Shown here one piece after another: positions 234 to 431 of a stretch of DNA of 13,406 nucleotides. Position 1 is the stretch's first letter; every line of letters begins with the position of its first letter. The DNA comes from a virus. Its lineage: Duplodnaviria > Heunggongvirae > Uroviricota > Caudoviricetes. A model generated the notes under the pieces. The model was not told the DNA's origin and made no database searches. It worked only from the letters and a program-made list of their open reading frames with translations. The stretch is from the IMG/VR virus record IMGVR_UViG_2778261447_000002. One strand, 5' to 3'. The position numbers were made by a program, and so were the translations under genes.

Positions 234-253
234 ACGGGGCGGGAGCGTCGCGG
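234..253. other. cosN-like terminase nicking site (cohesive-end region)
   Basis: Sequence ACGGGGCGGGAGCGTCGCGG closely parallels the lambda cos junction ...ACG|GGGCGGCGACCT|CGCGG as I recall it; the inferred 12-nt overhang equivalent is GGGCGGGAGCGT (237-248). It lies ~190 bp upstream of the small terminase start, the same spacing as lambda cosN to Nu1. The following segment (AAAACGGCTGATTTTTGAATTTTCATGGG) also parallels lambda GTTTTCGCTATTTATGAAAATTTTCCGG. From memory of the lambda sequence, not a search. Confidence 0.55.
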
Positions 254-272
254 AAAACGGCTGATTTTTGAA

Positions 273-285
273 TTTTCATGGGACA
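273..285 (+). repeat. Direct copy of TTTT(C/T)ATGGGACA element (candidate terminase R-site)
   Basis: TTTTCATGGGACA at 273-285 matches TTTTTATGGGACA at 350-362 in 12 of 13 positions. Confidence 0.5.
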
Positions 286-336
286 CCACCACATCAAGTA
301 ACCTATTGAAAATTACTGCAAAAAAAGCTTTTGACC

Positions 337-362
337 TGTCCCATTTGGCTTTTTATGGGACA
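337..362. repeat. Inverted repeat TGTCCCAT-N10-ATGGGACA (candidate paired terminase binding site)
   Basis: 337-344 TGTCCCAT is the exact reverse complement of 355-362 ATGGGACA; the 10-nt spacer is TTGGCTTTTT. A possible degenerate half-site GGACAT (reverse complement) lies at 378-383. Confidence 0.5.
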
Positions 363-431
363 TCTGACCAGTTTTTAATGTCCTGTTTTTAATGAGAAAA
401 ATGATATTCGAGCTGGTGTGGAGAGGTGGGG

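Follow-up and report, generated by a model that had tools for sequence, protein, structure and literature searches.

A lambda-like cos site with distinct cosB repeats next to a DUF1441 small terminase gene in an Escherichia coli prophage

The cos locus and its neighbouring genes

The DNA analyzed here, a 13,406-bp stretch of a Caudoviricetes virus (IMG/VR record IMGVR_UViG_2778261447_000002; hereafter the window), harbors what sequence comparison identifies as the cos site of a lambda-like Escherichia coli prophage, the start of DNA packaging. With a probability of about 0.8, positions 208-431 can be read as the cos of a lambda-like temperate phage combining Gifsy-2/cdtI-type head and terminase genes with lambda-type tail genes. 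The subsites follow each other in the order cosQ, cosN, an AT-rich spacer, R3, a site resembling those of integration host factor (IHF), an inverted R2, R1 and the small terminase gene terS; distances marked with a plus sign count the first overhang base (237) as +1. The cosB order R3-I1-R2-R1 with an inverted R2 is established for lambda-like phages (PMC4669245, PMC9026076).

The cosQ-like heptamer GGGTCCT (208-214, + strand), identical to that of the lambda right end, lies 29 nt 5' of the putative top-strand nick (30 nt in lambda), as expected of lambda-like cos sites, in which a conserved 7-bp cosQ stands about 30 bp before cosN. The 22-bp cosN, CCACG/GGGCGGGAGCGT/CGCGG (232-253; slashes mark the putative nicks), contains a putative 12-nt 5' overhang at 237-248 between lambda-like flanks, which the initial annotation had recognized. 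That annotation had also counted three differences between the overhang and that of lambda. There are in fact four substitutions with respect to lambda GGGCGGCGACCT (NC_001416), at positions 7, 8, 9 and 11, and it is the Gifsy-1 overhang (GGGCGGCAGCGT) that departs from lambda at three positions and from the window at a single one (position 7). Bases 1-6 and the flanks ACG/.../CGCGG are the same as in lambda, with 8 of the 12 overhang bases matching. Lambda-like cos sites with 12-nt 5' ends conserve GGGCGG as the left half of the overhang and CG flanks at each nick (Feiss et al. 2015, PMC4669245); the window has both, at the level of sequence only. Between cosN and cosB, at the place of the lambda I2 segment (described in PMC4856287), lies the AT-rich spacer AAAACGGCTGATTTTTGAATTTTC (254-277). 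An open reading frame (ORF) of 82 aa (16-264, + strand) crosses both cosQ and cosN; its mEp460 homologue is annotated as hypothetical and no Pfam match was obtained. It is probably not a real gene, because a gene spanning cos would be cut apart in virion DNA.

The octamer ATGGGACA occurs at 278-285 (+), 337-344 (-) and 355-362 (+) and nowhere else in the window, that is, three copies inside 85 bp for an expectation of 0.62 in the whole window. The arrangement described by the initial annotation, one direct copy and an inverted pair with a 10-bp spacer, is exact, the spacer occupying 345-354. The first copy is the core of a putative R3-equivalent site of the small terminase (TerS), ATGGGACACCACCAC (278-292, + strand; +42 to +56). 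The second (+101 to +108) is the core of a putative R2 equivalent, which is inverted and reads GACCTGTCCCAT on the + strand (333-344, - strand), and the third (+119 to +126) that of a putative R1 equivalent, ATGGGACATCTGACC (355-369, + strand). Between R3 and R2 lies the IHF-like site TTTCAATAGGTTA (299-311, - strand; +63 to +75), an I1 equivalent with one mismatch to WATCAANNNNTTR. The window thus has the three repeated sites between cosN and terS, the middle one inverted, that characterize a complex cosB. In dinucleotide-preserving shuffles of 249-431, an 8-mer present at least three times arose in 169 of 5,000 cases; this test is weak because of A/T runs, and with a G+C filter that leaves non-AT-rich 8-mers the figure was 54 of 20,000. 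Taken alone, the repeat is suggestive rather than overwhelming, and the weight of the case is carried by the comparisons given below.

In lambda, R3 spans +50 to +65 (+48 to +60 in N15; PMC9026076), and R2, R1 and the Nu1 start lie at 109-124, 151-166 and 191 (NC_001416). Besides cosQ, the nick flanks and the first six overhang bases, the window shares with lambda three (here putative) small-terminase sites with an inverted middle one, an IHF-like site between the first two, the position of the small terminase gene (+196 here) and a gpA-type large terminase (TerL); the centres of R3 and R2 are 59 bp apart, against about 61 bp in lambda. However, R3 is about 10 bp closer to cosN in the window, R1 is about 23 bp closer to R2, and its R sites, built on a GGACA core, bear no relation to those of lambda (CGTTTCC).

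The terS gene (432-935, + strand; ATG at +196, the same start codon as in RefSeq) codes for a protein of 167 aa whose only Pfam match is DUF1441 (PF07278, E=2e-44), whereas the lambda protein belongs to Phage_Nu1. An alignment-based AlphaFold model of mean predicted local distance difference test (pLDDT) 85, which replaced a poor single-sequence prediction (pLDDT 52), contains in succession a strand (12-14), two helices (15-21 and 26-35), a beta-hairpin wing (42-51), a further helix (52-60) and long C-terminal helices. The best Foldseek matches of the N-terminal domain in the PDB are the MerR-type winged helix-turn-helix (HTH) domains of RacA, BldC, BmrR, MtaN and GlnR (probability 0.99-1.0, E around 0.02). 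The N-terminus is therefore predicted to be a MerR-like winged HTH with a recognition helix at residues 26-35, D25 standing just before it, so that D25, R26 and K27 fall at the N-terminus of the predicted helix. The DNA-binding domain of lambda gpNu1 is of the same fold class; by predicted fold and by position TerS is Nu1-like, yet it stands outside the Nu1 sequence family.

The adjacent terL (932-3031, + strand) codes for a TerL of 699 aa with gpA-type ATPase and nuclease domains (PF05876, E=6e-75; PF20454, E=3e-86), the type of large subunit found in lambda-type terminases, although with only 24% identity to lambda gpA. A DUF1441 TerS 38% identical to that of the window is present in Cr-LKS3, a phage reported to have 5' cohesive ends beginning GGGC (PMC9303873). 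Downstream lie genes for a lambda-family portal and a fusion of ClpP protease and major capsid protein, followed by tail genes of the lambda-type Z, U, V, G, T and H families, in agreement with the lambda-like tail proposed initially; the head and terminase genes resemble those of Gifsy-2 and cdtI, not those of lambda. The head decoration or cement protein (6762-7277) carries a C-terminal collagen-like repeat (PF09956 and PF01391).

Covariation of the TerS recognition helix and the cosB sites

Relatives of the window TerS were collected from viral and genome collections, giving about 100 loci, of which about 80 are distinct. In nearly all of them a cosN-like core lies upstream of terS, always about 195 bp away, and the whole cos region can be aligned. 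Several elements are kept across this set, for example GGGTCCTCC or GGTACTCC at the cosQ position, AAAACGGCTAGTTTT in the spacer of nearly all relatives, and TAAC....TTG at the position of the IHF-like site, where many relatives match the consensus perfectly (TAACTATTTGAT).

When the relatives are sorted by the first residues of the TerS recognition helix, the sites fall into matching classes. The D-R-K class (the window, Trabulsiella, Pantoea, Erwinia, Citrobacter, Buttiauxella and others) has R3 GGACACCACC, R2 CTGTCC and R1 GGACA, with the cores GGACA/TGTCC/GGACA in the order R3/R2/R1. The N-R-G class (Providencia, Morganella, Rahnella and others) has CTGTCAGCAGC, GGTGACA and CTGTCA (cores TGTCA/TGACA/TGTCA), and the N-R-S class has CGACA, TGTCG and CGACA, which are also its cores. 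In the H-R-D class of the cdtI group the sites are GGCGGCGGCA, CCTGTACA and CCTGTCA (core GGCGGC...), and in the D-R-A class CATCATCA, CTGATG and CATCAGG (cores CATCA/TGATG/CATCA). The window falls in the D-R-K/GGACA class, as set up here, by D25-R26-K27 and by all three cores. Within each class one core is common to the three sites, and all three switch together between classes, in step with the first recognition-helix residues across the approximately 80 relatives. Such a concerted change is hard to explain unless a single protein reads all three sites, and these comparisons strongly support the GGACA-core repeats as TerS sites. Moreover, on a tree restricted to the C-terminal part of TerS the D-R-K class is polyphyletic, which argues that cosB and the DNA-binding domain move as a unit, irrespective of the remainder of TerS. 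The initial proposal of a small terminase divergent from that of lambda and matched to its own cosB repeats is borne out by this covariation and by the DUF1441 family of the protein. Because the comparative data support the GGACA repeats as TerS sites, a packaging-initiation specificity other than that of lambda, also part of that proposal, is largely supported as well.

Among nine diverse lineages of the D-R-K class, the longest invariant block is the 11-bp GGACACCACCA (281-291, within R3), kept in all nine; the R1 core GGACA is likewise present in 9/9, the R2 motif CTGTCC in 7/9, and TAAC....TG is kept at the IHF-like site. The family-wide part of the ATGGGACA octamer is the GGACA core only, the full octamer being common to the relatives with the most similar helices (L011, L082 and L083). 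The cosB spacers are not conserved across the nine lineages, and this includes the AAAAGCTTTT palindrome (323-332), which was noted initially and does exist within the AT-rich stretch before R2. It is probably incidental and was rejected as a functional element.

A possible variant of this interpretation, compatible with it and in our view rather unlikely, is that TerS acts through R3 only, the situation known from N15 with its simple cosB, and that the pair at 337-362 is accessory or bound by another factor. The length of the invariant R3 block is in its favour, as are the loss or displacement of R2 in L011, L082 and L083 and the fact that R3 is the critical site in lambda and that N15 works with R3 alone (PMC9026076, PMC4669245). 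Conversely, R1 and R2 are kept in all nine and in seven of the nine D-R-K lineages, respectively, and both change in concert with R3 between classes, which is not expected of sites for an unrelated factor.

Two groups of relatives depart from the common cosB arrangement. In Trabulsiella guamensis (L011/L090), about 160 bp 5' of terS, the unit made of R3 and the IHF-like site is tandemly duplicated (TTTTCATGGGACACC...TAACTTATTGA, twice) and a proper inverted R2 is lacking; this cosB looks like a snapshot of evolution by duplication. L082 and L083, also of the D-R-K class, have no TGTCC at the usual R2 place and carry GACCTGTCCC directly before the terS start codon, as if the inverted site had been relocated.

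Directly 5' of the terS start codon of the window, a class-specific element overlaps the Shine-Dalgarno sequence, CGAGCTGGTGTGGAGAGGTGGGG (409-431, + strand). AGCTGG is kept in the D-R-K class, whose form of the element is (G/T)AGCTGGTGTG..GAGGTG, and the N-R-G counterpart, CACCTGACAnnGTGAGGTGTCA, contains two R-like cores flanking the Shine-Dalgarno sequence; the element may be a fourth TerS contact or a signal for translational autoregulation. A second conserved motif, TAA(C/T)NNNN(A/T)TG, lies 3' of R1 (376-385). It resembles the IHF-like site that separates R3 from R2 and, in the window, overlaps a 14-bp direct repeat (365-378 and 379-392).

A known overhang and a swapped cassette

The altered cohesive end pointed out initially is a real variant, though not a special one. 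GGGCGGGAGCGT forms the first bases of the deposited genome of phage cdtI (AB285204), whose last bases are ...GGCCTGCCACG (ending in CCACG), and the record of phage Tritos (OV696610) opens at the same base, i.e. the inferred left end. The cosN and overhang of cdtI, Tritos and HannyBb are identical to those of the window, and in HannyBb, PhiR40_1 and mEp460 an identical or almost identical cosN core lies inside the record. The exact 22-bp cosN was found in at least 120 IMG/VR contigs among the matches listed, and the cosQ-cosN segment is present in 2,053 of 5,426 complete E. coli genomes. With cdtI, Tritos, mEp460 and PhiR40_1, the window belongs to an E. coli GGGCGGGAGCGT group whose members have the 22-bp cosN in identical form and hardly differ in the nuclease domain of TerL. 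Overhang base pairs 7-12 vary in nature (at 9 and 12 in N15; at 8, 9 and 11 in Gifsy-1), their changes have no measurable effect on cos cleavage and do not set its specificity, and conservation in lambda-like phages concerns cosQ, the CG flanks and the left overhang half (PMC4669245). Among the terS relatives, the flanks CCACG and CGCGG are nearly constant around some 20 different right halves. Because deposited records share GGGCGGGAGCGT and base pairs 7-12 vary, the overhang is not new and is not likely to be the seat of specificity. A literature search with the exact overhang string returned no relevant paper and one unrelated one, and a search with the name "Tritos" returned unrelated papers only.

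Other overhangs of the DUF1441 group vary in their left half as well, for example in Pantoea (AGGCGGCGGCCC), L086 (GGGAGTGGGACT) and L078 (GGTAATCAGCGC), in contrast with published surveys of Nu1-type phages, where this half is conserved. In Gifsy-2 (L111, 296-325), 14 nt instead of 12 separate the CCACG and CGCGG flanks (GGTGGCTTCGGGCT), reflecting either another overhang length or a shifted nick position. The virion-derived assembly of mEp460_4F5 (L001/L004, LR595868.1) breaks 5 nt left of the predicted nick, its first bases being CCACGGGGCGGGAGCGCGG, 3 bases short within cosN, which would fit an artefact of the assembly where physical cohesive ends lie. This break and the record starts of cdtI and Tritos lend indirect support to virion ends at the predicted nicks.

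The regions on both sides of cosB, terS and the 5' part of terL have a different history from these elements themselves. Sliding identity to PhiR40_1 and cdtI is 86-100% from position 1 to about 290 and 98-100% from about 1950 on, and falls in between to 46-75% in most 100-bp bins (89% in one); megablast similarity ends at about 288-292. This delimits, with approximate boundaries, a mosaic cassette (~290-1950, + strand) made of cosB, terS and the N-terminal ATPase part of TerL (the 5' two-thirds of terL), with one joint right after cosN/I2 and the other inside terL. From about residue 365 to the end at residue 699, TerL is essentially identical to those of cdtI and PhiR40_1, a stretch that starts inside the region matched by the Pfam endonuclease domain (residues 325-643) and continues past it, whereas its N-terminal ATPase part diverges. 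The cassette would determine packaging specificity, much as in the classical case of lambda and 21, whose specificity is set by cosB together with gene 1 and the start of gene 2 (its 5' end; PMC4669245).

The mEp460/PhiR40_1 group is 94-100% identical to the window over 1-290 (end of the lysis genes, cosQ, cosN), and PhiR40_1 is 98-100% identical to it from about 1950 on, but its members have TerS proteins with 37% identity to that of the window and cosB repeats of the TGTCGA/TTCGACA type. The cdtI, Tritos and HannyBb phages share with the window the overall layout, a DUF1441 TerS and a near-identical TerL over residues ~365-699; in contrast, their TerS is only 57.5% identical, its helix starts with H-R-D instead of D-R-K, and their cosB sites are those given above for the H-R-D class. 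In 118 sampled instances of the identical 22-bp cosN, at least four other types of cosB/TerS follow it. Gifsy-1, in spite of its close overhang and a complex cosB with three R sites and IHF (PMC9026076; PMC4669245), has a Nu1-type TerS, lambda/21-type heads and unrelated R sequences, and the classification of the window as a Gifsy-1-type cos was rejected on these grounds. A precedent is the pair of phage 21 and lambda, which share cosQ and cosN and differ in cosB and the matching TerS recognition helix, and in whose hybrids specificity moves as a block of cosB, terS and the 5' part of terL (PMC4669245). The present case differs from it in protein family and in site sequences, and in that the exchange is seen, by sequence, among natural E. 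coli prophages sharing GGGCGGGAGCGT.

The cassette is rare. Positions 200-1000 are covered in only 1 of the 5,426 complete E. coli genomes, the three-site pattern is found in one IMG/VR contig, the cluster of the window TerS holds 18 sequences on 10 contigs, and the closest TerS outside E. coli, that of Trabulsiella guamensis, is about 80% identical. It appears to have been acquired by recombination into a common E. coli phage backbone and probably provides the phage with a packaging specificity of its own. The initial annotation, which was right in seeing a lambda-type cos with its own cosB, had overlooked the swapped cassette that cosB makes up with terS and the 5' part of terL.

The single complete-genome copy, 100% identical over 200-1000, lies in the chromosome of E. 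coli Ch1 (L009, NZ_CP127316.1), where RefSeq annotates a frameshifted terL, an internal stop in a W-like gene, a truncated DUF2190 gene and a frameshifted tail gene; either the Ch1 prophage or the Ch1 assembly may be defective. The ORFs in 932-3240 are intact in the window, and the difference reflects either another assembly as its source or sequencing errors or decay in Ch1. Together with the rarity of the cassette, these defects are what would favour the improbable reading of the cos as a relic in a decaying prophage, its elements real by descent and no longer used for packaging. This reading is countered by the intact ORFs of terS, terL (699 aa), the portal, the protease-capsid fusion and the tail genes in the window, by the perfection of all three 8-bp cores and by the intact family-invariant R3; moreover, the Ch1 defects are single-base events of what seems to be the assembly-error type.

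Proposed mechanism and significance

The presence, order, spacing, conservation and covariation of the subsites, together with the protein families and the mosaic structure, are read from the sequence comparisons; we infer the nick positions, TerS binding to the GGACA sites, IHF bending and an effect on packaging specificity. In the model that we propose by analogy with lambda, DUF1441 TerS dimers would dock their winged HTH domains on the GGACA-core sites R3 (278-292), inverted R2 (333-344) and R1 (355-369), while IHF would bend the DNA at 299-311 and bring R3 and R2 together. The bound TerS would then place the gpA-type TerL on cosN (232-253), where nicks staggered by 12 nt (top strand after 236, bottom strand at 248/249) would leave the 5' overhang GGGCGGGAGCGT. 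Packaging would run rightward into terS and terL, and cosQ (208-214) would serve termination at the next cos. The specificity of initiation would reside in the fit of the helix start D25-R26-K27 to the GGACA core, not in the variant overhang. The block of cosB, terS and 5' terL (~290-1950) would have recombined in, the backbone supplying cosQ, cosN and the nuclease domain of TerL.

Several points weigh against this interpretation. The nick positions are placed by homology only, and IHF matches with one mismatch are no commoner in the window than by chance. TerS has no significant sequence similarity to lambda Nu1 (hhalign probability 4.5%) and no sequence match in the PDB, although in the hhalign alignment the HTH and the wing motif of the two proteins do coincide (VRGNPV in the window, GKGNEV in Nu1). 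In L011, L082 and L083, R2 is degenerate or absent at its usual place and may be dispensable, and the only complete-genome copy, in Ch1, has its terL annotated as frameshifted. Finally, cosB and the 5' end of terS are adjacent, and linkage alone would yield some association between helix and sites; because this adjacency gives co-inheritance, the argument rests on the concerted change of the three sites.

The view that a transcription factor of the late or terminase genes uses the ATGGGACA repeats as operators or promoter elements, and that they are not packaging signals, draws on their operator-like look (inverted repeats with a 10-bp spacer just 5' of a gene) and on the overlap of the class-specific element with the terS ribosome-binding site, but it is very improbable given that transcription of the late genes in lambdoid phages comes from pR' and passes through cos, that neither sigma-70-like promoter nor terminator matches were found in 1-600, for which a promoter or terminator reading of the region was rejected, and that the sites, measured from cosN, stand where lambda has its R sites and vary in step with the helix of TerS.

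By 2015, only three packaging specificities (lambda, 21 and N15) had been experimentally documented among lambda-like cos phages, and more diversity was expected (PMC4669245). In the sequence comparisons made here, a single terminase family contains at least five types of TerS helix, each matched to its own R-site core, and a cosN common in E. coli occurs with at least five different modules of cosB and TerS. The textbook lambda architecture and the overhang, present in deposited genomes, were already known; what appears new is a rare class of R sites and TerS in E. coli, a helix start that tracks the site core family-wide, and the exchange of a cassette on a constant backbone of cosN and nuclease. 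These observations bear on DNA packaging and phage mosaicism and lead to testable predictions as to which cos sites cross-package, which residues would serve to re-target a terminase, and how co-resident prophages avoid mutual packaging. For cosmids, in vitro packaging and phage engineering, they imply that lambda terminase should not recognise the window cos, whose ends would mismatch those of lambda at 4 bases.

Beyond the single locus, we tentatively raise the possibility of a recognition code, in which the first helix residues (DRK, NRG, NRS, HRD or DRA) would dictate the 5-bp core of all cosB sites, and specificity would be switched naturally by exchange of the cosB-terS-5' terL cassette on a constant backbone of cosQ, cosN and nuclease. 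Were this code true, the swap seen in the window would have given the phage a specificity almost unique in E. coli, possibly insulating it from cross-packaging by, or competition with, co-resident prophages (and possibly satellites) that share its cosN, and the class-specific element over the terS ribosome-binding site could add autoregulation of TerS.

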